DNA from: Thermoplasmata archaeon
Lineage (GTDB): Archaea; Thermoplasmatota; Thermoplasmata; Lutacidiplasmatales; UBA184
Reading direction: 5' to 3'
Length of the DNA stretch: 64,000 bases
Assembly (NCBI GenBank): GCA_021823345.1
Contig: JAKAOF010000001.1
Location: 26,062-90,061 of the forward strand
The translations under genes and the position numbers were made by a program. Positions 831 to 49,527 of the stretch are shown here, piece by piece. The notes beneath the pieces are model-generated. The model did not search any database, was not told the origin of the DNA, and saw nothing but the letters and a program-made list of their open reading frames with translations. Within the stretch, counting starts at the first letter, position 1; every line of letters begins with the position of its first letter.

Positions 831-1649
831 TCACGAGCCCCGGATCACGAGGATCGGGCAGGGAGAGATGGCAAACAGCTCCTCCAGGAACGGGCGCGTG
901 ACGAACTCCCTTCCGAGCCCCCGTCCCTCGTCTCCGAGGATGCACAGGCCGTAGCCTTCCTTGCGTACCTCCTTGAGGATGGCGCTGGGCAGGAGGGCGT
1001 TCGACTGGAAGAATCGGGCCGGGAAGAGGACCGTCTTCAAGACCCGCGGCACGCTGCGCTGGCGTCCGTGGAACTCGTGACTGGTGCTGTCCTCTTCCGT
1101 CCGAGCGGAGCCGGACCGCATGTGCAAGGTCACGATGGGGAGATTGCCGAGCTCGGCGGACAAGGTCTCGGCGACCTGCATCGTCTTCGGCGGAGGCTGC
1201 ACCGTGAGAGTGGGGAGGATCACCTTGGAGGCCCGGGTGGCCGAGAGGGCCAAGGGATTCACGACCAGCACGTCGCAGGAGGCGTGGTTCAGGATCGCGG
1301 AGCTCGTGTGGCCGAAGATCTTGTGACGATGCCGGGGATCCGCCGTGAGGGTCATGAGGATGGCGTCCGCCGAGAGCGCCTCCGCCCGCTCCAGGATCTC
1401 GATGGCCACATCCGGCGCGACGACCACCTCGGGGGTCACCTTGATGTCCAGCGCGGCCGCCGCCTCGTGGGCGGGGATCACGATGTGGAGCGAGGAACGC
1501 CACCCCTTGGCGATCTCGGGCATCGAGACCTCGTGGATGACGTTGAGGATGTGCACTTCTCCTCCGCTCTCCAGGAGCCGCGAGGCCAATTTGACCAGGG
1601 GTTCCACGTAGGCCGGGGTGATGACCGGGACGAGGATCTTGCGATACAT
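831..1649 (-). CDS. tandem universal stress protein (UspA) domain protein, Kdp-associated (KdpQ-like)
   Basis: 272 aa with two Usp-like halves (ILVPV.., VLVV motifs). Lies immediately downstream of kdpC on the same strand, as in haloarchaeal kdpFABCQ. Confidence 0.6.
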   Translation of the reverse strand: MYRKILVPVITPAYVEPLVKLASRLLESGGEVHILNVIHEVSMPEIAKGWRSSLHIVIPAHEAAAALDIKVTPEVVVAPDVAIEILERAEALSADAILMTLTADPRHRHKIFGHTSSAILNHASCDVLVVNPLALSATRASKVILPTLTVQPPPKTMQVAETLSAELGNLPIVTLHMRSGSARTEEDSTSHEFHGRQRSVPRVLKTVLFPARFFQSNALLPSAILKEVRKEGYGLCILGDEGRGLGREFVTRPFLEELFAISPCPILVIRGS

Positions 1650-1658
1650 CGGTTCCCG

Positions 1659-2315
1659 CTAACCGGCCCCCTGCTGTGCCATGAGATCGATCAGGCCCCC
1701 ATCCAACTCTACCACGTTGACGTACATAGCTCCGACTCCCGGGACCCCGGATCCCCGGATGTAGGAGTTGACCAACGTCGTGAGCTCCGACTGGGATTCC
1801 CCGGTGAAGTACGCCACGCGGGGGATCTGGACCAACGCACCGCACGGTGAGATGTCGGGGTCGACGCCGCTCGCCGAGTCCGTCACGATGTCCGGTGGGA
1901 TGCCGCAGGCGCTCGTGATGTTGTGCACCCCGGTCTCGTTGATGTAATAGCGCGTCTCGTTGAGCAGGTTGGGGTCGGTCGGGCCGTACGGGGTCTCGTT
2001 CCCCGCCCCGGTGAGGTACTGGTAGTCGGTGTCCGAAGGGCGCGACCAGAAGAGCCCCCGGTAGGGGCAGCTCGAGAGGTTCCCGTTCCAGTAAGCGCAG
2101 GTGATGTTCTCCCCCAGCAGTGTCGAATAGGAGGTTCCGTTGGGGCCGCTCACGATGCTCCCTCCCGCCGAACCGGGGTCGGTTACGTCCGCCAAGTAGG
2201 GGGCGACCGCCGTCAGCGTGAGGGGATAGGCCAGGCTTGCGAAGAAGAGCAGGGCGAGGAGGAAGACGAGCGCCGGGCGGAGTGGCGATACGGGGTGCGT
2301 GCTCTCCTCGGTCAT
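1659..2315 (-). CDS. kdpC: K+-transporting ATPase subunit C
   Basis: 218 aa, N-terminal TM helix then a soluble domain. Position after kdpB with a 4-nt overlap. Confidence 0.75.
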   Translation of the reverse strand: MTEESTHPVSPLRPALVFLLALLFFASLAYPLTLTAVAPYLADVTDPGSAGGSIVSGPNGTSYSTLLGENITCAYWNGNLSSCPYRGLFWSRPSDTDYQYLTGAGNETPYGPTDPNLLNETRYYINETGVHNITSACGIPPDIVTDSASGVDPDISPCGALVQIPRVAYFTGESQSELTTLVNSYIRGSGVPGVGAMYVNVVELDGGLIDLMAQQGAG

Positions 2316-4435: not shown

Positions 4436-4439
4436 CGTC

Positions 4440-6131
4440 TCATCCCCCTCCCAATAGGCCCTGGGCGAAGGGCCCCATGACGAGCACTGGGAGGAACAGG
4501 AGCCCGGTCACGATGGTGATGAACAGGATGAGGAAGACCGTGAAGGTGCTCGAATCCGTCTTGATGGTCCCGGGCCCGGGGGGCAAGGGCGACTGGGAAG
4601 CGAGGGTGCCGCCGATCGCGAGCATGGCGATCATGGGGAGGTACCGACCCACGGTCATCACGACCGCCCCGGCGAGGTTGAAGTACAGCGTGTTGTCGAT
4701 GAGCGAACCCATGGAACTGCCATTATTGGCCGACTCACTGGTGAATTCGTAGAGCACCGCCGTGAACTGGTGGGAGGGAAGTCCTGCCGGGGAGAACTGG
4801 GCCAGCCCGAAGATGAAGGCCACGGCCGTGGGAATGAGGATCGCAAAGGGGTGGGAGAGGATGACCACGGTGCTCCAGCGCATCTCGTACTTCCCGATCT
4901 TCTTCCCCAGGTATTCCGGGGTCCGCCCCACCATCAGTCCGCCCACGAAGATCGCCAGAAGGGTATTGATGAGCAGGAGACCGAAACCGGTCCCGTCCCC
5001 CCCGGGCGCTCCCTGGATGAACATTCCCCAGAGAAGATCGGCCTGGGCCCCCGGAGTGAGTGCTCCGATGGACATGCTGGTGGACCCGACGTTCCCGTAG
5101 ACACTGGCGATCTGGAAGAGGGCACTTTCGGGCAGGGTGAAACGTTGCTCGGCCCCCACGAGAGGACCCCCCGCCTGGGAGATCCCCGTCGACATGAGGA
5201 ACGGATTGTACGATTCAAAGTAGAGGAAGAGAAGAATGGCGACCAGGAAGATGGTCAGGGCGGCGATGAGCAGCGGCCGCCCCTCCCCCTCCTTGCGCAC
5301 CATCCGAGAGAACATGAAGGGGGCGGAGAAGGGGATGATGAGCATCAGGAAGATCGCGATGAGGTTGGTGATGGCGGAAGGGTTCTGGAGGGGGCTCGCA
5401 CCGTTCGCGGCATAGAACCCCCCCCCATTGCTCCCGAGCCATTCGATGGAGTCCCAGGCCGCCACGGGTCCGAGCGGGATCCCCTGGGCCGGACCCGCGA
5501 GCGGCACGATGTTCACGCTCTGGGCCAACGTCTGCGGGACGCCGGCCAGGATGAGCATCAGCGCCCCCAGGATCGAGATCGGGAGAAGCACCCGCGTGAA
5601 CGCTTGGGTGACGTCAAGATAGAAGTTGCCGATCGTCCCGTCCTTGCGGAGGAAACCACGGATCAAGGCTACCCCCACGGATATCCCGGAAGCCGCTGAG
5701 AGGAACATCATCATCATGAGGCCGAAGAGCGAGCTGAACAGCGAGGTCTGGAGCTCGGGGGTGTAGTGCTGAAAGTCCGTGTTCGTATCGAAGGAGAGCG
5801 CGGTGTGGACCGCGAGGTCCCAGTTCATCCCCGGGGCGTTCCAGTAGTTGAGGGGGAGGTAGCCCTGCAAGAGAAGCAGCACGAACACGAACACGGTCGC
5901 GGTGGCGTTCAACACGAGGAGCGCGACCGCGTACTCCTTCCAGCGCATCTGGCGCGACGCATCGACCCCCATGAGCCGCAAGAGGGCGGATTCCACCGGA
6001 CGCATCACGGGGTCGAGGAACGTGGGTCGCCCCACGAAGACCTTCGCCATGTAGCGGCCGACGATCGCGGCCGAGACCAGGCCGAGAATGATGAGGACGA
6101 TGACGTCCGGTAGGGTCGAGATCGCGATCAT
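4440..6131 (-). CDS. kdpA: K+-transporting ATPase subunit A
   Basis: 563 aa polytopic membrane protein with KdpA-like selectivity loops. Located between kdpF and kdpB. Confidence 0.9.
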   Translation of the reverse strand: MIAISTLPDVIVLIILGLVSAAIVGRYMAKVFVGRPTFLDPVMRPVESALLRLMGVDASRQMRWKEYAVALLVLNATATVFVFVLLLLQGYLPLNYWNAPGMNWDLAVHTALSFDTNTDFQHYTPELQTSLFSSLFGLMMMMFLSAASGISVGVALIRGFLRKDGTIGNFYLDVTQAFTRVLLPISILGALMLILAGVPQTLAQSVNIVPLAGPAQGIPLGPVAAWDSIEWLGSNGGGFYAANGASPLQNPSAITNLIAIFLMLIIPFSAPFMFSRMVRKEGEGRPLLIAALTIFLVAILLFLYFESYNPFLMSTGISQAGGPLVGAEQRFTLPESALFQIASVYGNVGSTSMSIGALTPGAQADLLWGMFIQGAPGGDGTGFGLLLINTLLAIFVGGLMVGRTPEYLGKKIGKYEMRWSTVVILSHPFAILIPTAVAFIFGLAQFSPAGLPSHQFTAVLYEFTSESANNGSSMGSLIDNTLYFNLAGAVVMTVGRYLPMIAMLAIGGTLASQSPLPPGPGTIKTDSSTFTVFLILFITIVTGLLFLPVLVMGPFAQGLLGGG

Positions 6132-6136
6132 TCCCG

Positions 6137-6253
6137 TCAGAACTTCTCGGGACGAAGGATCGCGTAGAGCAGGTAGATCGTGATCGCCACGGAAATGCCT
6201 GTGAAGGTGAGGAGGCCGGCGTGATCAGCGATGGCCTGCAATAGGGCGTCCAT
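6137..6253 (-). CDS. kdpF: K+-transporting ATPase subunit F (38 aa, not in ORF track)
   Basis: Hand translation of the minus strand gives MDALLQAIADHAGLLTFTGISVAITIYLLYAILRPEKF. Single TM peptide ending 6 nt upstream of the kdpA ATG. Confidence 0.7.
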   Translation of the reverse strand: MDALLQAIADHAGLLTFTGISVAITIYLLYAILRPEKF

Positions 6254-6291
6254 GGAAAGACCCGGTTTTCGGGCTCACGTAGAGTGCCCCC

Positions 6292-6299
6292 GTTTAAAC
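6292..6299 (-). promoter_or_regulatory. TTTAAA-type TATA-like element upstream of kdpF
   Basis: gtttaaac lies about 40 nt upstream of the kdpF start codon, in the 320-nt divergent intergenic region. Confidence 0.3.
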
Positions 6300-6542
6300 C
6301 TTTCCGGAACAGCCACCAGTCCATCGGGACGCCCCGCGGAGCGTCGGGCCACCCATGGATGGGGGGTCCGGGACAGGGTTCCGGCACCTAATCACCCCTG
6401 AAATCGTGACTTCGACGGAGCTTCCGAGCCCCGCGACGCCGTTCGGACCTTGGGTCGGTGAGCGCACGATACTTCGGAGGGCGCATGACCGGCCACCTTC
6501 CCCCGAACTCGGAGGAAAAGTAGACCAAACGCTACGGAGCCG

Positions 6543-6550
6543 TAATATAC
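6543..6550 (+). promoter_or_regulatory. TATA box (taatatac) for leaderless marR transcript
   Basis: taatatac is centred about 27 nt upstream of the ATG at 6574. The same octamer recurs upstream of hsp20 at 18699. Confidence 0.45.
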
Positions 6551-6573
6551 GGAGCCTGAGTAAACGGCGCAAA

Positions 6574-7062
6574 ATGCCCGTTGCACGCGCCTCCAGTCAC
6601 AGCGCGACCTCCCTGGTCAGGTCGGAGTTCCCTGAGGGACCGCTGGAAGACTACCGGGTCACCTTTCGTCTTCTACGGCAGTTGCTGGGGGAGGTCCTCT
6701 CCCCGTTCGAACTGCTGGTCTCGGATTATCTAGCCCTCAAATTCTCCGCCGAAAGCCCTATTCGGCCCGGGGCCCTGTCGGGATGCCTTGGGATCTCTCC
6801 CGCGGCGACGACGGAGCTCATCGACCGGCTCGAATCTCGTGGGTTCCTTCAGCGGGAACGTGACCCGCAGGACCGTCGTGCCTCTCGTATCGCGCTCACG
6901 CTCTCGGGTCGGAAAATGCTGTCGGAGGCGAAGACCGCCTACAGCCAGTTCCTAGTCAGCGTGCAGCAGGAGATGGACCCGCGCGACCTCGCCGCGCTCG
7001 AACGGGGTGCGCGAGGGCTGCATGAGGTGCTGAGCCACCGAACCAAAGAGGGTTCCCTCTGA
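6574..7062 (+). CDS. MarR family transcriptional regulator
   Basis: Winged-helix MarR signature (ISPAATTELIDRLESRGFLQRERDPQDRRASRIALT). I start at the internal ATG at 6574; the track ORF from 6355 carries a non-MarR N-terminal extension. Confidence 0.8.
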   Translation: MPVARASSHSATSLVRSEFPEGPLEDYRVTFRLLRQLLGEVLSPFELLVSDYLALKFSAESPIRPGALSGCLGISPAATTELIDRLESRGFLQRERDPQDRRASRIALTLSGRKMLSEAKTAYSQFLVSVQQEMDPRDLAALERGARGLHEVLSHRTKEGSL

Positions 7063-7084
7063 TCGAGGGGAACGGACCGTAGAC

Positions 7085-8860
7085 ATGGCGGATTACAAGT
7101 GGACCGTACTGTCAAACACCACGCTCGGAGCGCTGCTCGCCTCGTTGGACGGGACGATCGTCCTCATCTCGCTCCCCGTCATTTTTCACGGGCTCGGGGT
7201 CAACCCCTTCGACCCCGGGAGCTTCCCGCTCCTCCTGTGGATGCTGCTCGGTTACGGGGTGGTCACCGGCACGCTGCTCGTCAGCTTCGGACGGCTTTCG
7301 GACATCTACGGTCGTGCCCGGATGTACAACATGGGGTTCGCCATCTTCTCGTTGGGGTCGATCCTGCTCTTCGCCGACCCGCTGAGCGGGTACTCCGGCG
7401 CCTTGGCGCTCGTGCTCTTCCGGCTGGTGCAGGCCGTGGGCGCGGCCTTCCTCTTCGCCAACTCGGCCGCCCTCCTTACGGATGCCTTCCCCTCGAACGA
7501 ACGCGGGATGGCGATGGGCGTGAACCAGGTCGCCTTCATCGGGGGATCGATGCTGGGCCTCATCCTGGGGGGCATCCTGGCGGGCATTCCCGACATTCAC
7601 CTGGGCCCCTTTGTCCTGCCCACGTGGCGGACCATCTTCTTGGTCAGTGTGCCGGTCGGGGTCGGAGGGACGATCTGGGCGTACGCCCGGCTCCGCGAGA
7701 TCTCGACACGACGGGCAGGCCAACGAATCGACTACGTCGGCAATGCCACCTTTGCCGCAGGCTTGATCCTCCTCCTCGTTTCGGTCACCTACGGGCTGCT
7801 CCCCTACGGGTCGTCCAGCACGGGCTGGGGGAATCCATGGGTCCTCGCCGGGCTCCTCTCCGGGGCGGGGCTCCTAGCCTTCTTCCTCTGGGTGGAGCGA
7901 AAGGTTCCGGACCCGATGTTCCGGCTCGAGCTCTTCCGGGTCCGTTCCTTTACTGCGGGAATTTCCGCCGCCTTCCTGGGGTCGATCGCTCGGGGAGGCA
8001 TGATGTTGCTCCTTGTACTGTGGCTCCAGGGCATTTGGCTCCCCCTGCACGGATATTCCTTCGCAGAGACACCGCTGTGGGCGGGGATCATGATGACCCC
8101 GATGATGATCGGCTTCATCGTCTCGGGACCGCTCTCGGGACGACTTTCGGACCGGAAGGGCGCGAAGACCCTCGCCACCCTGGGGATGGGTATCGGTTCG
8201 ATCACCTTCTTCCTACTGGCGCTCCTGCCGACGGACTTTGCCTACTGGGAGCTCGGTTCGATCCTCTTCGCCATGGGTGTGGGAATGGGGATGTTCGCCT
8301 CCCCCAACGCCGCGGCCATCATGAACTCCGTCCCGCCCGAGAACCGGGGGGCATCCTCCGGGATGATGGCCACGCTGCAGAACATCGGCCAACAGGCGTC
8401 CCTGGCGATCTTCTTCACGGTCGTCATCGTGGGGCTTTCCGTGCACCTCGGCCCATCGGTCAACGGGGCCCTCCTGGGGGCCCAGGTCGGGTCCCCCGAC
8501 CGCCAGATGCTGGTCGGTGCGATATCCGCCGACCCGACCGGGGCGTTGTTCGGGGCCTTCCTGGGAGAGAATCCCATGACGGGTCTGCTCGCCTCCCTAT
8601 CGCAATCTCCCGGATGGGTTCCGCTTTCGGCCTCCACCCAGAACACGTTGCTCGCTCCGCACTTCTTCGCCACGGCGATCGCCGCGGGGTTCTCCACGTC
8701 CCTCTCCGAAGCCTTCCTCTTCGCCGGCACGCTGACCGCGGTGAGCACCCTGATATCGGCCCTGCGGGGCGAACGGTACGTCTATGACGAGGCCGTGGGG
8801 GCCCCGAGCTCCCGACGGGAGTTCTCCCCGCCGATCGAAGCGGCGGGCGAGGGCAAGTAG
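7085..8860 (+). CDS. MFS transporter, DHA2/EmrB-like (14-TMS drug efflux)
   Basis: 591 aa, about 14 hydrophobic segments, MFS motif GRLSDIYGR. Adjacent to marR. Confidence 0.85.
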   Translation: MADYKWTVLSNTTLGALLASLDGTIVLISLPVIFHGLGVNPFDPGSFPLLLWMLLGYGVVTGTLLVSFGRLSDIYGRARMYNMGFAIFSLGSILLFADPLSGYSGALALVLFRLVQAVGAAFLFANSAALLTDAFPSNERGMAMGVNQVAFIGGSMLGLILGGILAGIPDIHLGPFVLPTWRTIFLVSVPVGVGGTIWAYARLREISTRRAGQRIDYVGNATFAAGLILLLVSVTYGLLPYGSSSTGWGNPWVLAGLLSGAGLLAFFLWVERKVPDPMFRLELFRVRSFTAGISAAFLGSIARGGMMLLLVLWLQGIWLPLHGYSFAETPLWAGIMMTPMMIGFIVSGPLSGRLSDRKGAKTLATLGMGIGSITFFLLALLPTDFAYWELGSILFAMGVGMGMFASPNAAAIMNSVPPENRGASSGMMATLQNIGQQASLAIFFTVVIVGLSVHLGPSVNGALLGAQVGSPDRQMLVGAISADPTGALFGAFLGENPMTGLLASLSQSPGWVPLSASTQNTLLAPHFFATAIAAGFSTSLSEAFLFAGTLTAVSTLISALRGERYVYDEAVGAPSSRREFSPPIEAAGEGK

Positions 8861-8873
8861 TTCCCCGAGGGGT

Positions 8874-9350
8874 CTACTTCCTTACCAGGAATTGGACTTC
8901 GCAGTGGGCCCAGGCCGTGGGGTCCGTCCAAGGATCTCCCGAGTAGACCTCCCGATGGCCGCGGACGGCCGTGATCTCACCATCCTTTCGGCGCCACCGT
9001 AGCCAATCGTTGAGACCGTGGTAGATGATCCGGTCGGCGATCTCATCGGGATCGAAGATCGCGTAGGCCGCGTGTCCGGCCTTCAAGGTCTTGACCTGGA
9101 TCCTCCCCTCGGATCTGGCGGCACCTCGGATCTCGAGACACGCCTCCCATCGGTCGTCCTTGGGCGATTGGAATATCCACTTCCCGGTCCGAAGATGGTG
9201 CTTCTTCGCCCACGCCATGAGCTCCCGGAACTCGGGCCGCAAGATCCCTTCTTTCCAGGGTCCCACTCGGACGATCGACGCCACCCGGTAACTCGGCACC
9301 TTCTTGATCGCAAAATCGACAGTCACGTTCCTAACGCCTCTGGGTGACAT
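8874..9350 (-). CDS. GyrI-like small-molecule-binding domain protein (putative)
   Basis: 158 aa. Size and W/aromatic pattern are consistent with the GyrI/AraC effector-binding fold. Weak call from composition only. Confidence 0.35.
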   Translation of the reverse strand: MSPRGVRNVTVDFAIKKVPSYRVASIVRVGPWKEGILRPEFRELMAWAKKHHLRTGKWIFQSPKDDRWEACLEIRGAARSEGRIQVKTLKAGHAAYAIFDPDEIADRIIYHGLNDWLRWRRKDGEITAVRGHREVYSGDPWTDPTAWAHCEVQFLVRK

Positions 9351-9540
9351 ATAGACCAGGTCGACACTTAGTCTTGCTCCCGCCCCAGGGCGGCTTCTGC
9401 CTCCCGGGGTCCCTTCGAACGGGGACCACGTAAGCGGGTACCGAGGGACCTTGGCAGCCCCCCTCTCCGCAGTCTACCGGTGCCGTTCCGAGTTCTGAAA
9501 GTGCGGTCATGGTCCGCACAAGGCGAGTTCGGCGGAGCCA

Positions 9541-9891
9541 GTGACCGAAACTCCACGTGGGCACAAACTCAAATACCCTCGGTACTCTTGTGGGTCTGAA
9601 TCAACGAAGAACGTGCAAGAGTACGATCCCCTGCAGGAGATTACCAAGGAACTCGACCGCGAAGAATCTGTCCTCACCGTGCGAGTGGAAAAGCGGCGGT
9701 ACAACAAGCCCGCGACGATCATCGCCGGGTTCCCGAAGGATACGGATCTCCACGACATCACTCGTCAGTTGAAGACCTATCTTGCCACCGGTGGCACCTC
9801 CAAGGATGGGGAGATCGTGCTGAATGGCGATCACTTCCGCCGGGCGAAGGAGAAGCTCGAAGCCCTCGGATATCACATCTCGGGAGGCTAG
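9541..9891 (+). CDS. sui1: translation initiation factor SUI1 (aIF1)
   Basis: C-terminal KRRYNKPATIIAGF...LKTYLATGGTSKDGEIVLNGDHFRRAKEKLEALGY is the SUI1 fold. The track ORF starts at GTG 9541. An in-frame GTG at 9613 gives the more typical ~93-aa protein. Confidence 0.85.
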   Translation: MTETPRGHKLKYPRYSCGSESTKNVQEYDPLQEITKELDREESVLTVRVEKRRYNKPATIIAGFPKDTDLHDITRQLKTYLATGGTSKDGEIVLNGDHFRRAKEKLEALGYHISGG

Positions 9892-9919
9892 ACCGCCGTT
9901 AGCGTTCTATTCCAGGTCC

Positions 9920-10207
9920 ATGCAGATAAAACTAGTGGAAAAAGGGCACGACTTCCTGCGCCTTTCGCTGCCGAAGGGCGCCGAGACCATCTTGGTACCG
10001 CTCGTCGAAGGGTTGCAGGCCGAGGACGCCGTCATCGAGGCCCGGTACTACATCGGGCACCCGTTCGCGGAAGAACCCGGGCTCTATCTCAAGACCAAAG
10101 GGGAGAAGCCCCAGGCCGTGCTGAAGCGCGTCCTCAAGTCGCTGTCGGAAAATTACTCGGACGCCCTGACCCGGTTCGACAAGGCCACCGAGAAGCAGCG
10201 GAACTGA
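9920..10207 (+). CDS. rpoL: DNA-directed RNA polymerase subunit L (Rpo11)
   Basis: 95 aa, MQIKLVEKGHDFLRLSLPKGAETILVPLVEGL matches the Rpo11/RpoL N-terminal fold. Internal ATG of track ORF 9824..10207. Confidence 0.8.
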   Translation: MQIKLVEKGHDFLRLSLPKGAETILVPLVEGLQAEDAVIEARYYIGHPFAEEPGLYLKTKGEKPQAVLKRVLKSLSENYSDALTRFDKATEKQRN

Positions 10208-10220
10208 TCCTCTTACATCC

Positions 10221-10895
10221 ATGCTGAAGGAGTGCGTCAAGCACGGATATTTCCGCGGAGAAGTCTGTCCCCTGTGCGGGGACCAGGCCCGGTTCTTCAT
10301 GGACGACCGGGAACTCGACCACATGGCCCGTATCGTGGCCGGTATCCTCCGTCATTTTCCCCCCCGTTACGGGCTGACCCCCGGGCCCAACGGCTGGGTG
10401 CAGATGCGGGACCTCGTGCAGGCCATCAAGGCGCAGCACCGGAACTATCCCTGGCTCAAGGGCCACCACCTGATCGCCCTCGCCATGACCGACCCGAAGG
10501 GACGCTACGAGCTCCGGGACGATGCCATCCGGGCGACCTATGGTCACACGGTGGAAGTGGACCTTGACCTTCCTACGGACAACATTCCCGAGAGCCTCTA
10601 CTATCCCGTGACCCCGGAAGAGAAGGACCTCGTGCTCGAGGTCGGATTGCGGCCGACCGACCGCAAGAAGGTGCATCTCTCGCTCACGGCCTTAGATGCT
10701 TTCAGCGCGGGCAAGGTCCGCTGCGAGGCACCGACGATCCTCTCGGTGGACACCCGGAAGACGGTCGAGGACGGGCACACGATCCAGCGGGCCGGGAAGA
10801 CGGTCTTCTTGGTCGACATGGTCCCTCCGGCCATGCTTTCTCTCTACGATGGAGAGCTTCCCTCGGTCGAGAACGGGGCCGCTCCCGACGAGTAA
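10221..10895 (+). CDS. kptA: RNA 2'-phosphotransferase (Tpt1/KptA)
   Basis: 224 aa with the Tpt1/KptA-like HGT..V and VHLS motifs. Typical archaeal size. Confidence 0.75.
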   Translation: MLKECVKHGYFRGEVCPLCGDQARFFMDDRELDHMARIVAGILRHFPPRYGLTPGPNGWVQMRDLVQAIKAQHRNYPWLKGHHLIALAMTDPKGRYELRDDAIRATYGHTVEVDLDLPTDNIPESLYYPVTPEEKDLVLEVGLRPTDRKKVHLSLTALDAFSAGKVRCEAPTILSVDTRKTVEDGHTIQRAGKTVFLVDMVPPAMLSLYDGELPSVENGAAPDE

Positions 10896-10957
10896 GCTCT
10901 CCTGTAGGGGACGGCCGCGAGCCACCTCGTGCGAGCCGCGTTGATCTGAACGAGGGC

Positions 10958-11584
10958 CTAGAAGGCCACGCCGTGCACCGGCGGGTTGGGATCGGTCTGG
11001 GACCGCAAGAAGACCGTCGAGTCGGGAGAGGCCGCCGAACGGTTCAACGATCCGATCGATTGTTGGAGGAGTTCATAGGCCGCCGAAGTCTCAGGGTTGG
11101 CCGAATCCGTCGGGCCCCGGTGGTAGATCTGGAGCCGGTTCCCTTCCATCACCAATGCGAGGCGTTCCGGGGTCGATTCCGAGGTCCACAGGAGCGTGGT
11201 CCGTTCTCCCTCTTCGAACGAGCCCACCCAGCGGAAGCGACCGAACCAGCGGCCCGCCATCGACCCCAGGACCCGGTTCGAATCCGTGACGTGCGTCAGC
11301 CGGAGTTCCGCCTGGGGCCGCTCGCCCCGGGCGGGGAAGTGTAAGGTCGAAGCTCCCTCCGCCGGGAGGAAGCTCCGCTCGGGGATCCGGTAGCCCATGT
11401 CGCTTCGCTCGACGTGCCCTTCCTTCTCCAGTCGGTGCAGGGTCCGGGAGAGGCTCTCCTGGTGAACTCCGAGAGTCCGCCGGAGCCCCGCGAAGGTGAT
11501 TGCACCCGGAAACTCCGACATGAGGTCGAGGACCCGCTGGTCCAGCGGGCCGGAGCCTCCCCACTTAGGACGGGACATGCCCAA
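10958..11584 (-). CDS. winged-helix (ArsR/MarR-like) DNA-binding protein, C-terminal domain unknown
   Basis: N-terminal LDQRVLDLMSEFPGAITFAGLRRTLGVHQESLSRTLHRLEKEGHVER is an HTH. The remaining 130 aa have no recognisable domain. Confidence 0.5.
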   Translation of the reverse strand: MGMSRPKWGGSGPLDQRVLDLMSEFPGAITFAGLRRTLGVHQESLSRTLHRLEKEGHVERSDMGYRIPERSFLPAEGASTLHFPARGERPQAELRLTHVTDSNRVLGSMAGRWFGRFRWVGSFEEGERTTLLWTSESTPERLALVMEGNRLQIYHRGPTDSANPETSAAYELLQQSIGSLNRSAASPDSTVFLRSQTDPNPPVHGVAF

Positions 11585-11749
11585 TCTACCTGGGTCGGGC
11601 GTATTAGTTTTTGCAGGTCCCGGGAGCTACACCCGCGGGAGGGGCCATTTCGGCCCCTGCCCGGGGCCTGGCATCGGGAGCGGCGGGTGGGGTCCCGTTC
11701 CCAGCGGGGCCCCCTTCAGTGCGGATACACCCATCGTTGGTCCTCGGGT

Positions 11750-12013
11750 TCACTCGGAGAAGAGCTTGTCGAGCTTCTGGCGGATCACCCGCTCCTTCTC
11801 CTCGTACTTCCGGCCGCCGTCCCAACGGGCGTTGACGAGTTCGACCAGAAGGGTCGCGACCTGGTCGAGCCAGGGCCCTTCCTCCTTCTCGAACTGGGCC
11901 TTCAGTTTCTCCCGCAGGAGCTCATTGTGCGCCCGGTAGGCGCTCCAGACCCACGGTCCGTAGTTGTTCGCGTTCTCGGTCTCGTATTCGGTCCCACAGC
12001 ATCCCTCGCTCAT
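11750..12013 (-). CDS. hypothetical small protein (87 aa)
   Basis: Internal ATG of ORF 11750..12091 (MSEGCCGTEYE...). Charged helical C-terminal part. Coding status is plausible but unverified. Confidence 0.35.
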   Translation of the reverse strand: MSEGCCGTEYETENANNYGPWVWSAYRAHNELLREKLKAQFEKEEGPWLDQVATLLVELVNARWDGGRKYEEKERVIRQKLDKLFSE

Positions 12014-12600
12014 GTTCGTTCCCTTCGAGTCGCCTCGATCAACCCAAGGCCTGCGGGGGGTTGTTGACGGGCATCGTGAACATCCGGTCACATCGCTTCG
12101 ACGGCCGTGACCTGGACTTCCGGTGTGCCCCGGCCCAAACGGAACGCTTCACGGTAGTGCACGGAACGTGCCTCTCCACTTCTTGACCTGGCCGGGGCTG
12201 TTGGACCCCGGGGTTGTCCTCGCTTCATCCCGCCGGGCGACCCGCCCGTGTTTCTGGTCAGGAGGGACCACTTCTCGGAGTTCAGGCTCCGCGTTGGCGA
12301 AGCCAACAGGGTTGACGCCGTGCATGCGTATAAGCGTCGTGGACACCTTAGGAGGGGTAGGGTCGGGTCAGGGCGATGATCCGCTCGGGGGATTCCCTGG
12401 TCCTAAACCGAGCTTCCCCGGTCCGGGGTTCGGTTCGATCTCCGCTCGTTCGCGCCCTCCGGTGGCCCGCTCCGGGGAGCTTGGAATTTTCCGTTCTTGT
12501 CAAATAACCACCGAAGACTTCGAATGACACGTCATAGCAAACAGAATACTCATATACTCGAGGCGGAATTTCGCCCTGTAATACATGGGGGCCTCCATAG

Positions 12601-14196
12601 ATGCCTGAAGTGGTACTCACCTGCGACTGGACGATGATGAGTAACCACAACGGCAAGGAGTTCTTGGGCTTCGGGACGACTACCCCGGCCCTGGTCCTTC
12701 CGGAAGCGGCCTATCGGCGTCTCTTTTATCCCGAAATGAAGACCGACGCGGACGGCCATCCTCAGATGGCGCCGTACGGCCTTCGGAAGGTCGAGGCGTC
12801 CCTCATCGACGGGGGGTTCGACGCCCGGATCATCCATCCCAGCTTCCTGAGCCGCTACATGCCGGGGGAGGCCAAGGTGCTCCTCATCTCCGGTCACGAT
12901 TACCTCGCGCTCAACCCGCCCTCGACGACCTTCGCGGGGATCATGAAGAAGGAGCCCCTGAATCGGGTCAACTTCATGCGGATGATGCGCCAGCCGCACG
13001 TGGTCGAGGCGCGCCGACGCGGGATGAAGATCATCGCCGGGGGACCCTGCGCCTGGCAGCTTTCGCCCGTGACCCGGCAGAAGCTCGGATGGATCGACGA
13101 GTTCGTCCGGGAGATCGGGGGCATCGACACGGTGGTGGAGGGCGAGGCGGACCTGTACGTCCGGGAGATCGTGGGGAAGGCACTTCGCGGAGAACCCCTT
13201 CCAGAGCACGTCATCATTCCCCCGAAAGAAGCGCCCAAGGTGGAGCAGATCTCCACGATGCGCTATGCCTCGGTCAACGGTCTTACGGAGATCGGGCGCG
13301 GCTGCTGCCGCGGTTGTTCCTTCTGCTCCGTCACCCAGCGGCCCACCCGGTGGTATCCGCTCGAGAAGATCGAAGCGGAGCTCGCGATCAACAGGTCGGT
13401 CGGGATCACCGACGGGTTGCTCCACTCCGACGATGTCCTGTTCTACGGCTCGCCGAACATCATGCCCCGGGAAGAGAAGATCCTGCCCCTGATGCAGATG
13501 GCGAAGAAGTACTACGAGCATGTGGGCTGGAGCCATGTCGCAGTGGCGACCCTCATGACGAAGCCCAACCTTTTGCCCAAGATCCACGACATCCTGTGCA
13601 CGGGGTCCCAGTCCTGGTGGGGCGTCGAGATCGGGATGGAAACGGGAAGCCCCCGGCTCATCACGAAGGCCATGCCGGGCAAGGTGGCCCCGTTCCGGGC
13701 GAGCCAGTGGCCCGAGCTCGTGGTGCAGGCCGCGGGACTCCTGAACGACAACTCGGTCTATCCGGCATGCACGTTCATCGTGGGGTTGCCGCAGGAGACC
13801 GAGGAAGATGTCATTAAGACCATCGACCTTTTCGACGATCTATGGGACTTCAAAGCGATCCTGGTCCCGATGTTCTTCGTGCCGCTCGGCCACCTGGAGA
13901 AGAAGGACTGGTTCAAGCGCGACATGGTCACCGAGCGACAAAAGGAGCTCATGACCCGGGCGCTCTCGCACGGGATCCGCCAGTCCCGAGACCTGCTCAA
14001 CGTGTTCTTCGAGAACAAGGAAGGATTCTCCGGACGTGCGTACCGCACGGCCTTTGCGAGCTTCATCGGCTTCATCGAATTCATCGCACGGGAGAAGGGC
14101 CTCATGAGTGAACCCAAGCGGGACTCCCGGACTCCCATCGAGAGCCCCCTGTTACACCCCGAACGGATCCCCTTGCCGACCATCCCGGTCCGATAG
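12601..14196 (+). CDS. radical SAM protein with N-terminal B12-binding-like domain (archaeal family; Tes/MJ0865-like candidates)
   Basis: 531 aa. GCCRGCSFCS gives the CxxxCxxC radical-SAM cluster motif at about aa 235. The N-terminal 230 aa resemble the cobalamin-binding-like domain of archaeal rSAM families. Confidence 0.7.
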   Translation: MPEVVLTCDWTMMSNHNGKEFLGFGTTTPALVLPEAAYRRLFYPEMKTDADGHPQMAPYGLRKVEASLIDGGFDARIIHPSFLSRYMPGEAKVLLISGHDYLALNPPSTTFAGIMKKEPLNRVNFMRMMRQPHVVEARRRGMKIIAGGPCAWQLSPVTRQKLGWIDEFVREIGGIDTVVEGEADLYVREIVGKALRGEPLPEHVIIPPKEAPKVEQISTMRYASVNGLTEIGRGCCRGCSFCSVTQRPTRWYPLEKIEAELAINRSVGITDGLLHSDDVLFYGSPNIMPREEKILPLMQMAKKYYEHVGWSHVAVATLMTKPNLLPKIHDILCTGSQSWWGVEIGMETGSPRLITKAMPGKVAPFRASQWPELVVQAAGLLNDNSVYPACTFIVGLPQETEEDVIKTIDLFDDLWDFKAILVPMFFVPLGHLEKKDWFKRDMVTERQKELMTRALSHGIRQSRDLLNVFFENKEGFSGRAYRTAFASFIGFIEFIAREKGLMSEPKRDSRTPIESPLLHPERIPLPTIPVR

Positions 14197-14199
14197 AGG

Positions 14200-15504
14200 T
14201 TGGACATGGGAACCCCACCAACTCAACAGATCCCGCTCGCCGACTTCCTGCCCACCCTCCCGCACATCCGGATGGTCGAGGAGAAGGTCGATCCGCACTT
14301 GGGCATCTCCCGGGAGCTGCTCCGGACCCCGAACGAGGCGGTCTGGTTCCGCGGGTTCCGGAACCCGAGCGTGGTCGGGAACCTGTGGCCCACCCGGGAA
14401 TCCGTGGCCCAGTGCTACGGCGCCACCCCGGCGGAGCTCACGGAGATCTTACTCTCGGCCATCGAACACCCGGTCGCTCCGGCCCTCGGAGTGACGAGGG
14501 TCAGCTGGAGAGAACAGGAGACGAAGTCCGGGCTGGGCTCCTGGCCCGTCCCCCATTTCTTTCCCCGGGACGCCGGCCCCTACCTCACGGCCGCCGTCTA
14601 CTCCGCCACCTGGAAGGGAAAGCGCAATCTGTCGTATCATCGGTTGTGGGTGCGCGGCGACAGTGGCGGGCCCATGCGGCTCGTTCCTCGTCATCTCGAC
14701 CGGATGGTCCGGGAGGCCCGAAACGCGCGGGTCGAACTTCCCGTGGCCCTCATCCTCGGAGCTCCGATCGACGTGCTGCTGGCCGCCGCCTGCTCGACCG
14801 ACTACGCTGTCGACGAGATGGAGATCGCATCGGCGCTGCACCAGCGGCGCACGGGATCCCCTCTTTCGGTCTTCGAACTTCCGAATGGGATCCGAGTGCC
14901 GGCACAGGCCGAGATCATCCTCGAGGGCCGGATCACGCTCCGGGATGAGGAGGAGGGACCTTTCCTCGACATCCTGGGCACCTACGATGCCCGGCGGGTC
15001 CAGCCGGTCGTGCAGATCGACACGGTGCACACGGTGAAGAGCCCGGTCCTCCACGCCATCCTCCCCGGCTCGAACGAGCACTTCCTCCTGATGGGACTTC
15101 CCCGGGAGCCGCTGATCCTTCGGGCCGTGCGTTCCGTGGTCCCCGGGGTCAAGTGCGTCCGCTTGACCGAAGGGGGTTGCGGATGGCTCAACGGGGTGGT
15201 CTCCATCGAGAAGCGCCGCGAGGGCGATGGGAAGAATGCCATCATGGCGGCCTTCTCCGGACATTTCTCGATGAAGCATGTCACCGTGGTGGATGCCGAC
15301 ATCGATGTCTTCAACGACCGCGAGGTAGAATGGGCGGTGGCGACCCGGCTCCAGGCGGACAAGGGGCTCATCGTAGTGCCCGGCGCGACCGGGAGCAGTC
15401 TCGACCCGAGCGCTACCAAGGAAGGGGTGACGACCAAGTGGGGGATCGACGCCACGCTTCCGGTGAACGCCCCCCGCGAGCCCTTCGAGAAGGGTCATCT
15501 CTAA
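14200..15504 (+). CDS. UbiD-family (prenylated-FMN dependent) decarboxylase
   Basis: 434 aa. Conserved UbiD blocks (YHRLWVRGDSGGPMRL, LILGAPIDVLLAAA, FLDILGTYD). Starts 3 nt after the rSAM stop. Confidence 0.8.
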   Translation: MDMGTPPTQQIPLADFLPTLPHIRMVEEKVDPHLGISRELLRTPNEAVWFRGFRNPSVVGNLWPTRESVAQCYGATPAELTEILLSAIEHPVAPALGVTRVSWREQETKSGLGSWPVPHFFPRDAGPYLTAAVYSATWKGKRNLSYHRLWVRGDSGGPMRLVPRHLDRMVREARNARVELPVALILGAPIDVLLAAACSTDYAVDEMEIASALHQRRTGSPLSVFELPNGIRVPAQAEIILEGRITLRDEEEGPFLDILGTYDARRVQPVVQIDTVHTVKSPVLHAILPGSNEHFLLMGLPREPLILRAVRSVVPGVKCVRLTEGGCGWLNGVVSIEKRREGDGKNAIMAAFSGHFSMKHVTVVDADIDVFNDREVEWAVATRLQADKGLIVVPGATGSSLDPSATKEGVTTKWGIDATLPVNAPREPFEKGHL

Positions 15505-45654: not shown

Positions 45655-48600
45655 CTATGCGCCGGAAGTGTCCCCCGGGGGGTCCTTCGGTCCGTTGCCG
45701 GACTTGCCTTTCTTCTTGAGCCAATTCTCGAGCTCTCGCGTGATGTCCTCCACGGAGTCCGGGGACCGGGCGGCGCCCCCGGGCTGCGGGGGGCGGCTGT
45801 CCTCCGGTCCACTCCCTCCCGCACCGGGTGCCGGGGGTTTCGGGGCTTCGGACCTCGGACCCTGGTTCGTCCGAGCAACGTTCGCCGAAGCCGCCCCGTC
45901 GCTGGGGCGGGTGGAGGTCGGACCCGGATGCCGGGGTCCCTCGGTAGGAACGGTCGAGGACTCGGGGGCAGGCTCGACCTTTCGCGGTTCCCGGCTTCCG
46001 GGAACGATCTCGTAACCGCAGCGTTCGCACACGAGGTCGCTCGTCACCCTTCCTCCACAAAGCACGCACGAGAGCGGGGCGTAGCTGGTGGGGGTGGTCG
46101 GTGGTGGGGAAGGAGGAAGGGTCGCCGCGGGCGGCGGGGGAATACCTTGCGCAGAGGCACCCTCTCCGTGCATGGACGTGAGCGGCATACCGGCGGACAA
46201 GCCCTCGCTGGGAGCTGCGACGGCGGTCGGCGCATCCGTCGCTCCGGGTGGCTCTCTCACTCCCGTGTTCTCGGCGCGGTTCGACGCACCGGACCGGGCG
46301 CGACGACGCCGCAGGATCAAGATTCCGACGGCAACGATCGCACCGAGGATCGCGATCACTAGAAGATAGGGGAGATACTCCGAAATCACGGAGGGGGCTT
46401 TGTTGGGTGGAGATGATGGGGACTGGACCAGCACATGCACCGTCGCGGTGGTAGCGATCGTTCCCCGAGCATCCCGCACGTCCGCCTGGAAGGAGTAATT
46501 CCCCGGGTAATCGAGCGAGAGCGCCCACTGACTCGCATCGGGGGCCTTGGTATCGTTCGTCCCGTTGAGCAACCAGACGTACTGATAGGGGGCTTGGCCA
46601 CCCTGGAGGAGGATCGTCAGTTCAAAGCCTTCACCCGTGGTCACGGAGGTCCGGTTGGCGGAGAGCGCGACGGCGAGCGGGGGGATCGCGGGATGGACAT
46701 CGAGGGTCGTGGCGGCCGTGGTCGACTGGCCGAAGGGGTCGGTGGCCAGGATCGAGACGTTGTACATCCCCGCGCTCGAGGGGACGCACGTCAGGTGGCT
46801 CGCATTGGTGGAGGTGCATCCCGACGGGAGGCCCGAGTAGTGGTACGTATAGGGAAGGTCTCCGCCGGTCACCTGGACCGAGAGATTCGTGCCCTGGCCC
46901 AGGGTAAGATTGCTCGGAAGCGCCTGGAATGACAGGACCTTGAGCGCGGGAGGGGCCACGCCCACCAGGTCGCTGGGGGACATGGTGTGGACCGCTGGAA
47001 TCCCGACCGAAGAATCCGAGACGGAGTAGCAATAGTAGGTCGCGGAGGTCGGGGTGACATTGAGGTCCATCCCGTGGGCGCTCGCCACCAGGCTGTCCAA
47101 CCCACAGTTCGACTGGGCACCGGAGTACCACGCGAGGAGGTACGGGGGTGACCCGCCCAGGGGGCTGGCCTTCAGGAGGAGCGACTGGCCGATCGAGATC
47201 GTGGGGTTCCCGGGAGTGATGCTCCCTGCGCCGAGCGCCGGGCGGACCGTCACGATCGACCAGTTGGAGGCGACCACGGCCGGAGTGCTCGCATGGTCCG
47301 TTACGAGGTAGCAGAATTTCGCGGTGGTCGTGGGGGCGACGGTGAGGTGGGTCGAATTGCTGTTCGCCACCATGGTCCCATTGCTGCACGAGGACGGTGA
47401 CCCGCTGCTCTCGTACCATTGGAGCGACCATGGGAGGGTGCCTCCGGAGGGGGTCGCGGTCAGGTTCAAGGACTGACCCACATCGATCGACGAGTTCCCC
47501 GGAGACGGCCCGGCGGCACGTAGCGCGGGGTTGACCGTGACCAGGGACCAGGATGAATCTACGACCGACGGGGTCGTGGCACTGTCGCTGACGATGTAGC
47601 AAAAGTACGCGGTGCCCGACAGCGCCCCGGTCCACGACGCCCCGGTCGCGCCCGAAACGGGGGCCCCGGAACTACAAGGTATGGTGTTCTGCGAGCTCGA
47701 GTACCACTGGAACGAGTAGGGCAAGGTCCCTCCGGTGGGCGCCGACGAGAGGCGGACGGACTGCCCGATATCGATGGCGACGGAGGTGGGAGAAGGCGGA
47801 CCCGCAAGCAGGCTCGAGTTCACCACGGCCCACGCGGTCGGAGACTGCGACCCGGCCGAGGGACTTCCCAAGGAACTGTCCCCGACAAAGTAGCAGTAGT
47901 ATCGCGTGGCATTGAGGAGGACGGTGTAGTTCCACGCGGTTGCGCCCGTAATGACGGAATCACTTGCACAGGAGGATGAGTTGCCCGAGAACCATTGGTA
48001 GGAGTAGGGGGGGGCTCCACCGGATACGTTGGAGGAAAGGTGGAGCAGTTGTCCCGCGTCCACCTTGCCGGTCGGGGGGATCGGCGTGTTCGCCGACAGC
48101 ACCGGGTACACTTTCACCGTATCCAACGTGGAACTGCTACTCGCCCCGGCCAAGTCGGTCACGGTGTAACAGTAGGAGGTGTTCGTCGTCGGTGCGACGG
48201 ACAGGCTCGTGCCGGTCGCACCCGAGACCACGGAGTTACTGGAACAGGACGAGAGGTTCCCGGTGTACCACTGGTACGTATAGGGGGAGGTCCCTCCCGA
48301 GATGCTGACCGAGAGGGCGATGGACTGGCCGGAGTCGATCGCCGGCGTACCCGGGGTCGCGGGTCCGGCCGCCACGGGCGCGATGGTCGATCCATAGGAT
48401 GCGGTCGGCATCACGCCATTGGGGGGGTAGGCATGGACGCGCGCCCACTGCAAGGAAATGCTCGCGGTGGACAAGCTGGCGGCGACCAGGGCATAGCTCA
48501 CGTACTCGGCACTGGGAAGCGCATAGGTGGTGCTTGTCCCCGCGTACGCCACGTAATTCTCGTACCACGTCTGACTCCCCGTGGCGGTCCACGCTCCCCC

Positions 48601-49527
48601 CATGATCCCGGGGGCCAGTTGGATCGCCGGGGCCACCGGAGAAACCCCGATGGTAATGGATCCGACCCCCACGCTGCACGTGCAGCCGCCGGCATCATCG
48701 TCCAAGGTGTACCCCCCCGAGGTGCTGGAGCTCCCGTTCTGGAGGAAGAGGCCCGGATAGGGCCCCGTGACCGCCGTGACGTCGGCGTCGAAGATGATGG
48801 GGGGGGCAAAGCCCGTGGCCCAGGTGAGTCCGCCCACCGCCGCGCAACAGATCGTGAGCCCGTTGTTTTGGGTGATCGTGGGCCCCGAGACCACCACGTA
48901 ACCGGAGGAGACCGTGGTCCCGGCGAAATCATCGTAGAAATCAAAGACGGTCGCGCCGTCATCGAATGCGGCATAGGTAGCGGACAGTTGCGGCGCTTCT
49001 CCGATCGGGCCCGCGCTCGATAGCAGAAAACAAGTTGTCGGGGCGAAGTCCATCCCGACCTGGACGGTGCCGAGGGCAGGGATCGACGCCAGCCGTAGCC
49101 AGACCACGGTGCTGGTGCTCGTGTTGGTGGCTCCCGACTCGATCCAGGCCGGGATCAAGCCGCCGGAGGACAACCGGAATTCGACATTGGACCAGTTGGA
49201 GTTGATGTAGCGGGCGAAGGTCGCGGAATCGATCGTCAGTTGCTCTTGGAATGGGGAGGGGGTCGGGGCGGACTGGGAGTTCGTGATCGTGATCGGCGTC
49301 TCCTCCACCACCGGGCATGTCGACAACGGCCGAGCGTCTCGTACTTCGAACGTTCGTGTCGGTGCTCCACCGAGCGAAGGCCCTGGGCCGGCAATATCCG
49401 CGGTCGCGGCGTGCGGCGATGGCGCCGGAATATCCCACCAGGCCATGGGCGCCACGATGAGAAGGGGGGCAAGGACGATCGCCGCGCAAAGGAGAGGGAC
49501 AAGATAGGGGGTACGAACGGCGGTCAT
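45655..49527 (-). CDS. large N-glycosylated cell-surface protein: signal/TM, DUF2341-like domain, about 8 SprB/Ig-like repeats, C-terminal TM, cytoplasmic Pro-rich tail with zinc ribbon
   Basis: 1290 aa. Repeats of about 90 aa carry GGxxPYxYxW...C...GATG...YCY. More than 25 NxS/T sequons. TM YLPYLLVIAILGAIVAVGILIL, then RRRRAR. Tail ends in CVLCGG...CERCG. Confidence 0.8.
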   Translation of the reverse strand: MTAVRTPYLVPLLCAAIVLAPLLIVAPMAWWDIPAPSPHAATADIAGPGPSLGGAPTRTFEVRDARPLSTCPVVEETPITITNSQSAPTPSPFQEQLTIDSATFARYINSNWSNVEFRLSSGGLIPAWIESGATNTSTSTVVWLRLASIPALGTVQVGMDFAPTTCFLLSSAGPIGEAPQLSATYAAFDDGATVFDFYDDFAGTTVSSGYVVVSGPTITQNNGLTICCAAVGGLTWATGFAPPIIFDADVTAVTGPYPGLFLQNGSSSTSGGYTLDDDAGGCTCSVGVGSITIGVSPVAPAIQLAPGIMGGAWTATGSQTWYENYVAYAGTSTTYALPSAEYVSYALVAASLSTASISLQWARVHAYPPNGVMPTASYGSTIAPVAAGPATPGTPAIDSGQSIALSVSISGGTSPYTYQWYTGNLSSCSSNSVVSGATGTSLSVAPTTNTSYCYTVTDLAGASSSSTLDTVKVYPVLSANTPIPPTGKVDAGQLLHLSSNVSGGAPPYSYQWFSGNSSSCASDSVITGATAWNYTVLLNATRYYCYFVGDSSLGSPSAGSQSPTAWAVVNSSLLAGPPSPTSVAIDIGQSVRLSSAPTGGTLPYSFQWYSSSQNTIPCSSGAPVSGATGASWTGALSGTAYFCYIVSDSATTPSVVDSSWSLVTVNPALRAAGPSPGNSSIDVGQSLNLTATPSGGTLPWSLQWYESSGSPSSCSNGTMVANSNSTHLTVAPTTTAKFCYLVTDHASTPAVVASNWSIVTVRPALGAGSITPGNPTISIGQSLLLKASPLGGSPPYLLAWYSGAQSNCGLDSLVASAHGMDLNVTPTSATYYCYSVSDSSVGIPAVHTMSPSDLVGVAPPALKVLSFQALPSNLTLGQGTNLSVQVTGGDLPYTYHYSGLPSGCTSTNASHLTCVPSSAGMYNVSILATDPFGQSTTAATTLDVHPAIPPLAVALSANRTSVTTGEGFELTILLQGGQAPYQYVWLLNGTNDTKAPDASQWALSLDYPGNYSFQADVRDARGTIATTATVHVLVQSPSSPPNKAPSVISEYLPYLLVIAILGAIVAVGILILRRRRARSGASNRAENTGVREPPGATDAPTAVAAPSEGLSAGMPLTSMHGEGASAQGIPPPPAATLPPSPPPTTPTSYAPLSCVLCGGRVTSDLVCERCGYEIVPGSREPRKVEPAPESSTVPTEGPRHPGPTSTRPSDGAASANVARTNQGPRSEAPKPPAPGAGGSGPEDSRPPQPGGAARSPDSVEDITRELENWLKKKGKSGNGPKDPPGDTSGA
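46420..48360 (-). repeat. tandem protein-coding repeats (~270 nt units) encoding SprB/Ig-like modules
   Basis: About 7–8 repeat units, visible in translation at aa ~390–1035 of the surface protein. Confidence 0.6.

Follow-up and report, generated by a model that had tools for sequence, protein, structure and literature searches.

A predicted type I surface glycoprotein of a Thermoplasmata archaeon with a zinc-ribbon motif and a conserved terminal helix in its proline-rich tail

Locus, gene, and ortholog

We analyzed a 64,000-nucleotide stretch of DNA from a Thermoplasmata archaeon (GTDB lineage Lutacidiplasmatales, UBA184; GenBank assembly GCA_021823345.1, contig JAKAOF010000001.1, positions 26,062 to 90,061), referred to here as the window, and focused on a single gene within it. 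The gene is a complete open reading frame (ORF) on the minus strand (45655..49527) that starts with ATG and encodes 1290 amino acids (aa) followed by a stop codon. A first-pass annotation of the same DNA had described its product as a surface glycoprotein with a DUF2341 head, SprB/immunoglobulin (Ig)-like repeats, a C-terminal transmembrane (TM) helix, an arginine stop-transfer segment, and a proline-rich tail bearing a zinc ribbon. This architecture was supported throughout, and the product was confirmed as a predicted type I membrane-anchored surface glycoprotein (Table 1).

The gene sits in a same-strand series in the order CDC48/VAT, family III CoA-transferase, acyl-CoA dehydrogenase, surface-protein gene, topoisomerase VI (Topo VI) B, and Topo VI A. 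Beyond these genes, the opposite strand encodes NFACT and a double short-chain dehydrogenase. The window has a GC content of 65%. Its Topo VI B shares 85% identity with the protein of the metagenome-assembled genome (MAG) Thermoplasmata archaeon FK3.bin56, 64% with that of another Thermoplasmata MAG, and ∼50% with those of the next relatives, Methanomassiliicoccales, which places the source among uncultured, high-GC members of the class Thermoplasmata. Rfam yielded no RNA genes of use for taxonomy. A 1263-aa ortholog of the surface protein, P0003, occupies the same slot between acyl-CoA dehydrogenase and Topo VI B both in FK3.bin56 (L003) and on an independent Logan contig (L001). The surface protein is 50% identical to P0003 overall, compared with 85% for Topo VI B between the same two close relatives, and it therefore evolves fast, as is usual for surface proteins. 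In the MAG with the 64% identical Topo VI B (L004, positions ∼8400-10000), the slot upstream of Topo VI B contains a small multi-TM ORF and a nitrilase-like ORF. Judged by the loci compared, the surface-protein gene is lineage specific at the Topo VI B locus. A scan of genome contigs with the whole protein matched no relative.

Besides P0003, we recovered a near-identical database twin, P0001; both come from independent assemblies. The twin had been called from an internal GTG (V73; window positions 49312-49527, minus strand) and hence lacks the signal peptide. A hydrophobic N terminus equivalent to that of the 1290-aa protein is also present in P0003 and in a more distant homolog, P0005, and this conservation supports the longer ATG start at 49527. 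The independent assemblies also bear on whether the tail could be an assembly or annotation artifact, produced by a frameshift or by fusion with a downstream small zinc-ribbon gene. The tail is of low complexity, and long spurious ORFs are common at 65% GC. However, a continuous ORF with TM helix, ribbon, and terminal helix is found in the window, P0001, L001, L003, and 13 cluster members, and all indels are in frame. Because independent assemblies carry the same ORF, an artifact is largely excluded, and we give this explanation almost no credence.

Table 1. Features of the 1290-aa protein, with coordinates in the window; identities are those between the window protein and its syntenic ortholog P0003, and the last column refers to the AlphaFold2 (AF2) model of the tail, with confidence as the predicted local distance difference test (pLDDT)
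Feature	Coordinates	Strand	Residues	Remarks	Identity to P0003	AF2 model
N-terminal signal peptide or signal anchor	49423..49527	(-)	1-35	hydrophobic core 7-30; mean Kyte-Doolittle up to 2.6		
Head module, DUF2341 beta-sandwich then concanavalin-A-like lectin/glucanase jelly roll	48382..49311	(-)	73-382	without GH16 catalytic motif	62%	
Five SprB-type Ig-like repeats	46954..48381	(-)	383-858	92-96 aa each; conserved Cys pair per unit	42-60% (residues 383-1045)	
Two membrane-proximal PKD-like domains	46393..46953	(-)	859-1045		included in the preceding value	
Single TM helix and RRRRAR stop-transfer	46291..46392	(-)	1046-1079	TM 1052-1073; hydropathy peak 3.0	32%	helix 1048-1083, pLDDT 83-92
Pro-rich disordered linker 1	46078..46290	(-)	1080-1150		26%, 13 gap columns	pLDDT mostly <50
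Zinc ribbon (predicted), C1154-x2-C1157-x9-C1167-x2-C1170	46000..46077	(-)	1151-1176		73%	short beta-strands, pLDDT ∼82-85
Disordered linker 2	45751..45999	(-)	1177-1259		32%, 31 gap columns	pLDDT mostly <50
C-terminal amphipathic helix	45697..45750	(-)	1260-1277	DSVEDITRELENWLKKKG	15/16 residues (DSVEDITRELE-N/S-WLKK)	helix 1259-1274, pLDDT ∼85

Ectodomain and topology

The Pfam family DUF2341 (PF10102) matched the whole protein with 27.2 bits (cutoff, 23.4) and the N-terminal third alone with 31.2 bits. The head also displays a jelly-roll beta-sandwich similar to the solved members of the concanavalin A-like lectin/glucanase fold. A GH16-like enzyme was considered and rejected, as the ExDx(x)E catalytic motif is absent from the head and there are no conserved acidic residues within the jelly roll. 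Given the missing motif and the position of the conserved charged residues of the head, which sit outside the jelly roll, we read the head as a probable binding module rather than an enzyme.

Repeat units were delimited by anchoring on the motif GGxxPYxYxW, which yielded seven units, five SprB-type and two PKD-like. The first-pass annotation had recognized tandem repeats of ∼90 aa correctly but had put their number at about eight. The five SprB-type units align with 32 to 49% pairwise identity and all contain GGxxPYxYxW, a pair of Cys residues spaced 25 apart, and Y/FCY; the Pfam SprB repeat (PF13573) was matched in 4 stretches at 40 bits (cutoff, 28). The PKD-like units are more divergent (20 to 29% identity to the other repeats), and their match to PKD (PF00801) at residues 874-940 is weak, with 20.3 bits falling below the cutoff of 23.5. 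Relatives with the same PKD-like module carry PKD annotations, and the PKD-like pair is common to the window protein, P0003, and P0015. Tandem Repeats Finder detected no DNA-level tandem repeat in the gene, and the duplication of the repeats is therefore old. When a single repeat unit was searched with phmmer, the closest solved sequences were phage Ig-like capsid decoration proteins, matched over ∼85-100 residues (8zvi, E value of 6e-6; 5lxk, E value of 3.5e-5), a kinship at the level of the single Ig-like domain alone.

Uncultured archaea (Marsarchaeota, Micrarchaeota, Parvarchaeota, Bathyarchaeia, and Thermoplasmatota) account for most homologs of the protein; the homologs form an adhesin-like family that is variable and multi-copy. 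For DUF2341 proteins encoded in type IV pilus loci of archaea, for example arCOG03508, a role as adhesins has been proposed (Makarova et al. 2016, PMC4858521). The window protein is like the large archaeal DUF2341 surface proteins in its DUF2341-containing head of ∼325 aa (with the motifs GEAPQLS, YDDGA.VF.FYDNFAGT, and RAYPPNGVMP), its large size, and its Ig/PKD repeats. Unlike the pilus-locus proteins, it is encoded outside a pilus locus, lacks a class III (prepilin) signal peptide, and continues into a C-terminal TM helix and a long zinc-ribbon tail. A type IV pilin-like adhesin was rejected on similar grounds: the N terminus has no prepilin peptidase/class III motif, unlike that of the homolog P0010, and no pilus genes lie nearby. 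With the gliding adhesin SprB of Flavobacterium johnsoniae, the source of PF13573, the protein shares the SprB repeat in Ig-like domains and the general character of a repetitive adhesin-type surface protein. It differs from SprB of Bacteroidota in being archaeal, in having its own TM anchor, and in the absence of an outer membrane; the two are not orthologous, and the repeat type alone is common to them. No type IX secretion C-terminal sorting domain was found in the window protein with Pfam or NCBIfam.

Several features agree on the orientation of the protein in the membrane. A hydropathy scan returned two hydrophobic segments and no more, one at residues 7-30 and the other at residues 1052-1073; the latter separates the repeats from the ribbon. 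Directly after this second segment follows RRRRAR, consistent with the positive-inside rule for a cytoplasmic C terminus. The protein contains 24 NxS/T sequons, whereas composition-preserving shuffling of the ectodomain gives 8.8 ± 2.5 (z = 6.1); every one of the 24 precedes the TM helix, and the tail has none. The same asymmetry was seen in six relatives (ectodomain z, 3.7 to 6.1; tail, 0 to 2 sequons). Paired cysteines and extracellular-type domains occur only N-terminal of the TM helix, and the sole four-Cys metal site lies C-terminal of it. From these features we infer a type I topology, with the repeats outside and the ribbon inside, and an ectodomain that is probably heavily N-glycosylated. 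A substrate of archaeosortase/exosortase (PGF-CTERM and relatives) was rejected, as 217 residues lie beyond the TM helix and no CTERM model in NCBIfam matched.

The first-pass annotation had also called the protein S-layer-like. Some archaeal S-layer proteins are large, N-glycosylated, membrane anchored, and built of Ig-like repeats, and the window protein, predicted to be N-glycosylated, shares all of these properties. Nevertheless, no S-layer family in Pfam or NCBIfam was matched, and we did not retain the label. Further, the next relative (L004) lacks the gene at the corresponding locus, the homologs vary in the manner of multi-copy adhesins, and cultured Thermoplasmatales are without S-layers (PMC12448462); a true lattice-forming S-layer protein is therefore very improbable in our assessment. 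What cultured Thermoplasmatales do have is a disordered exterior glycoprotein layer ∼20 nm thick, the components and anchoring of which have not been identified (PMC12448462). A protein that is rich in sequons, anchored by a TM helix, and built as a lectin head on an Ig stalk is a plausible candidate component of a layer of this type.

The cytoplasmic tail and its distribution

The tail comprises 217 aa, 18% of which are proline. Its four ribbon cysteines (1154, 1157, 1167, and 1170) form the pattern CVLCGG...CERCG (CxxC-x9-CxxC) and would be expected to bind zinc. In the AF2 model of the tail, confident regions are limited to the TM helix, ribbon, and terminal helix, and the remainder is predicted as disordered. 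The terminal helix, which the first-pass annotation had not included, has a hydrophobic moment of 0.57, placing it in the top 0.4% of shuffles. Comparison of 13 natural variants of the ortholog revealed variation at 18 of 126 linker positions but at just one ribbon position and one helix position; the cysteines are the same throughout. Variants in the cluster of P0005 follow the same conservation pattern, with invariant ribbon cysteines. At the level of sequence, the ribbon and the terminal helix are thus selectively conserved islands in fast-diverging linkers (Table 1).

A search of the PDB with a profile of the tail gave nothing significant, the best match being the LysW zinc ribbon (E value of 0.16). 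We rejected a zinc-binding anti-sigma factor (zf-HC2): both the HxxxCxxC motif and a Pfam match are absent, and the ribbon is C-terminal rather than N-terminal.

We examined how often this tail design is used among the 120 listed homologs. A C-terminal TM anchor is present in 46 of them, most of which then end in 5 to 40 basic residues; tails longer than 60 aa occur in 13, and a ribbon lies behind the anchor in 5 (P0001, P0003, P0005, P0063, and P0070). P0005, which belongs to a Thermoplasmatota cluster with 39 members, carries its ribbon at the extreme C terminus. P0063 and P0070 have two ribbons each, and their full-length cluster mates, P0137 (4401 aa) and P0138 (3094 aa), are giant PKD proteins. 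Other long tails end in a SHOCT-like hairpin (P0077 and P0093) or share the motif LQPMEMRV..DRGTD (P0015 and P0016). Adjoining P0015, L156 encodes on its minus strand (1761-7727) a 1988-aa protein with a signal peptide and an unrelated ectodomain of Flg_new_2 repeats, the back end of which consists of a TM helix, RR, a Pro-rich linker of ∼130 aa, and an extreme C-terminal ribbon (CAHCGTKLQSGAPFCPGCG). As these sequences show, an arrangement in which a Pro-rich tether connects the TM helix to a small terminal module is modular and recurs with other ectodomains among related archaea, though rarely. As a side observation, the JGI call of P0063 (1475 aa) appears truncated: on L155 (∼1100-14428, plus strand), the frame is open for ∼4442 codons, matching P0137, and the small minus-strand "genes" called upstream of P0063 on L155 are probably spurious.

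A profile of the exact tail run against 1.84 billion representative proteins recovered its own lineage alone, plus P0122, a compositional false positive. A metagenome scan with the membrane-proximal module found mostly generic PKD proteins, and none of 40 complete ORFs had a ribbon tail. In the 1.68 Mb of sequence scanned, the architecture was confined to the proteins named above (P0001, P0003, P0005, P0063/P0137, P0070/P0138, and the Flg_new_2 protein), and the 64-kb window encodes no further protein with a TM helix and a ribbon. In the literature, we found no archaeal surface protein described as having a zinc-ribbon tail. The tail had been called unusual in the first-pass annotation, and this holds for its frequency among the listed homologs and for the restriction of the exact tail to one lineage; it holds less well for the design, which recurs on unrelated archaeal ectodomains and has a described mirror image in bacteria (PMC3355149).

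In that mirror image, bacterial N-terminal zinc ribbons are followed by a TM helix and an extracellular domain (YARHG proteins; PF12773/PF13240/PF13248), and the proteins were hypothesized to be membrane-tethered transcription factors (Coggill & Bateman 2012, PMC3355149). Both there and in the window protein, a generic CxxC...CxxC cytoplasmic ribbon is joined via one TM helix to an extracellular domain. Here, however, the polarity is the opposite, with a C-terminal ribbon separated from the membrane by a Pro-rich linker of 80-130 aa; in addition, the protein is archaeal, its ectodomain is a 1000-aa, predicted-glycosylated, adhesin-like array, and the tail has an extra conserved terminal helix.

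The bacterial precedent (PMC3355149) raises the question of whether the window protein could be a signaling device, in which ligand binding by the head leads to intramembrane or juxtamembrane cleavage and the ribbon tail, once released, affects transcription or a different target in the cytoplasm. Gly residues in the TM helix are in keeping with this scheme, and a Peptidase_M50 gene lies ∼5 kb from P0005, probably by coincidence. Yet the ribbon and its flanks are not basic and nothing in them suggests nucleic-acid binding, no protease or regulator is conserved nearby, the zf-HC2 signature is not matched, and a repeat ectodomain of 1000 aa with predicted glycosylation is typical of adhesins, not of sensors. 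We regard such a role as improbable.

Interpretation and further observations

Our preferred interpretation, to which we assign a probability of roughly 0.55, is that the protein is an adhesin or a glycoprotein of the cell coat and that its ribbon and terminal helix, displayed on a flexible tether, are docking sites for a cytoplasmic or inner-leaflet partner. Outside the cell, a noncatalytic lectin-like head would sit atop a stalk of seven disulfide-stabilized Ig/PKD-like domains, a layout suggestive of an adhesin or a cell-coat component. The single TM helix and the Arg cluster would place the C terminus in the cytoplasm, where a flexible Pro-rich tether of ∼200 aa would present two small conserved modules, the four-Cys ribbon and the terminal amphipathic helix. 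These modules would then be docked to the partner and so anchor, cluster, or position the surface protein. That the head binds a ligand and that the tail has a partner are both conclusions we infer from sequence. Transmembrane coupling to an intracellular partner, as the first-pass annotation had suggested, is plausible because the ribbon and the C-terminal helix are selectively conserved.

Several observations weigh against this interpretation. Most C-terminally anchored relatives have short basic tails, and the tail is thus not needed for the basic role of the ectodomain. The AF2 model of the tail was built on 3 sequences and has a predicted template modeling score of 0.20. In Pfam searches, the ribbon segments matched DZR_2, Zn_ribbon_3, Zn_Ribbon_1, and DZR only below threshold (12 to 20 bits; cutoffs, 25 to 27), with best matches of 16.9 bits for the window protein (DZR_2) and 19.5 bits for the ortholog, and they do not qualify as PF13240, PF13248, PF12773, or PF18912; "zinc ribbon" is accordingly an assignment at the level of motif and model rather than formal family membership. 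The window lineage belongs to the class Thermoplasmata, and the absence of S-layers, known from cultured Thermoplasmatales, may not hold for it. Finally, the neighborhoods of the window gene and of the relatives examined contain no conserved partner gene, and the neighbors in the window are housekeeping genes.

The lack of a conserved neighboring gene pointing to a partner is also what would be expected if the tail had none. In that case, the ribbon would be a folded knob or a self-association module for lateral clustering, the helix would lie on the inner leaflet, and together they would stabilize or organize the coat. The helix is strongly amphipathic, with a W/L face, a Lys cluster, and a basic C-terminal end, and the end modules are interchangeable among relatives (ribbon, double ribbon, or SHOCT-like), both of which fit a partner-free tail. 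On the other hand, the identity of the helix to its ortholog (Table 1) extends to the acidic face and persists amid a diverging tail, which exceeds what generic membrane binding needs, and the protein is membrane anchored already. A partner-free tail is thus a possibility to be taken seriously, if an unlikely one, and we favor docking to a partner.

Integrins and cadherins combine a large glycosylated multidomain ectodomain, one TM helix, and a disordered, motif-bearing cytoplasmic tail that recruits adaptors. The window protein has a similar layout without homology to these eukaryotic type I adhesion receptors, and any functional analogy is hypothetical. Extending the docking interpretation, Thermoplasmatota, many of which have no cell wall or S-layer, might possess integrin-like type I surface receptors, in which diverse giant ectodomains (DUF2341/Ig, PKD, or Flg_new_2) connect by way of a single TM helix and an extended, Pro-rich tether with interchangeable cytoplasmic docking modules (zinc ribbon, double ribbon, SHOCT-like hairpin, or terminal helix), and which attach the disordered exterior layer to an intracellular scaffold or relay surface events inward. 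We offer this broader proposal as speculation that is doubtful at present. The conserved cytoplasmic modules offer a way to ask if archaea have a physical link between the surface coat and the interior of the cell. Should these modules turn out to bind adaptors, they would be the prokaryotic equivalent of the tails of adhesion receptors; otherwise, the protein would be one more lineage-specific archaeal adhesin.

Some further observations concern other genes. At 32400-36839 (minus strand), the window encodes a 1479-aa protein made up almost entirely of TPR repeats (Pfam TPR_19, E value of 1.6e-64, 16 stretches). This protein ends in a Cys-rich cluster (CSGCGGPANYMHTCGAYICRHCIVQFASCPRC, near 32711) that may be a C-terminal zinc finger or a RING-like module. 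A 440-aa ORF at 36962-38284 (minus strand) had no Pfam match at an E value of ≤1e-5; a 429-aa ORF on the other strand overlaps with it in DNA of 65% GC, and it is thus possibly not a gene. Lastly, relatives of Topo VI B with 41 to 48% identity are present in many MAGs of Planctomycetota, Phycisphaerae, and Bdellovibrionota (L016, L022-L052, and others), among which L016, labeled "Proteobacteria bacterium," has a full-length Topo VI B match at 48% identity.

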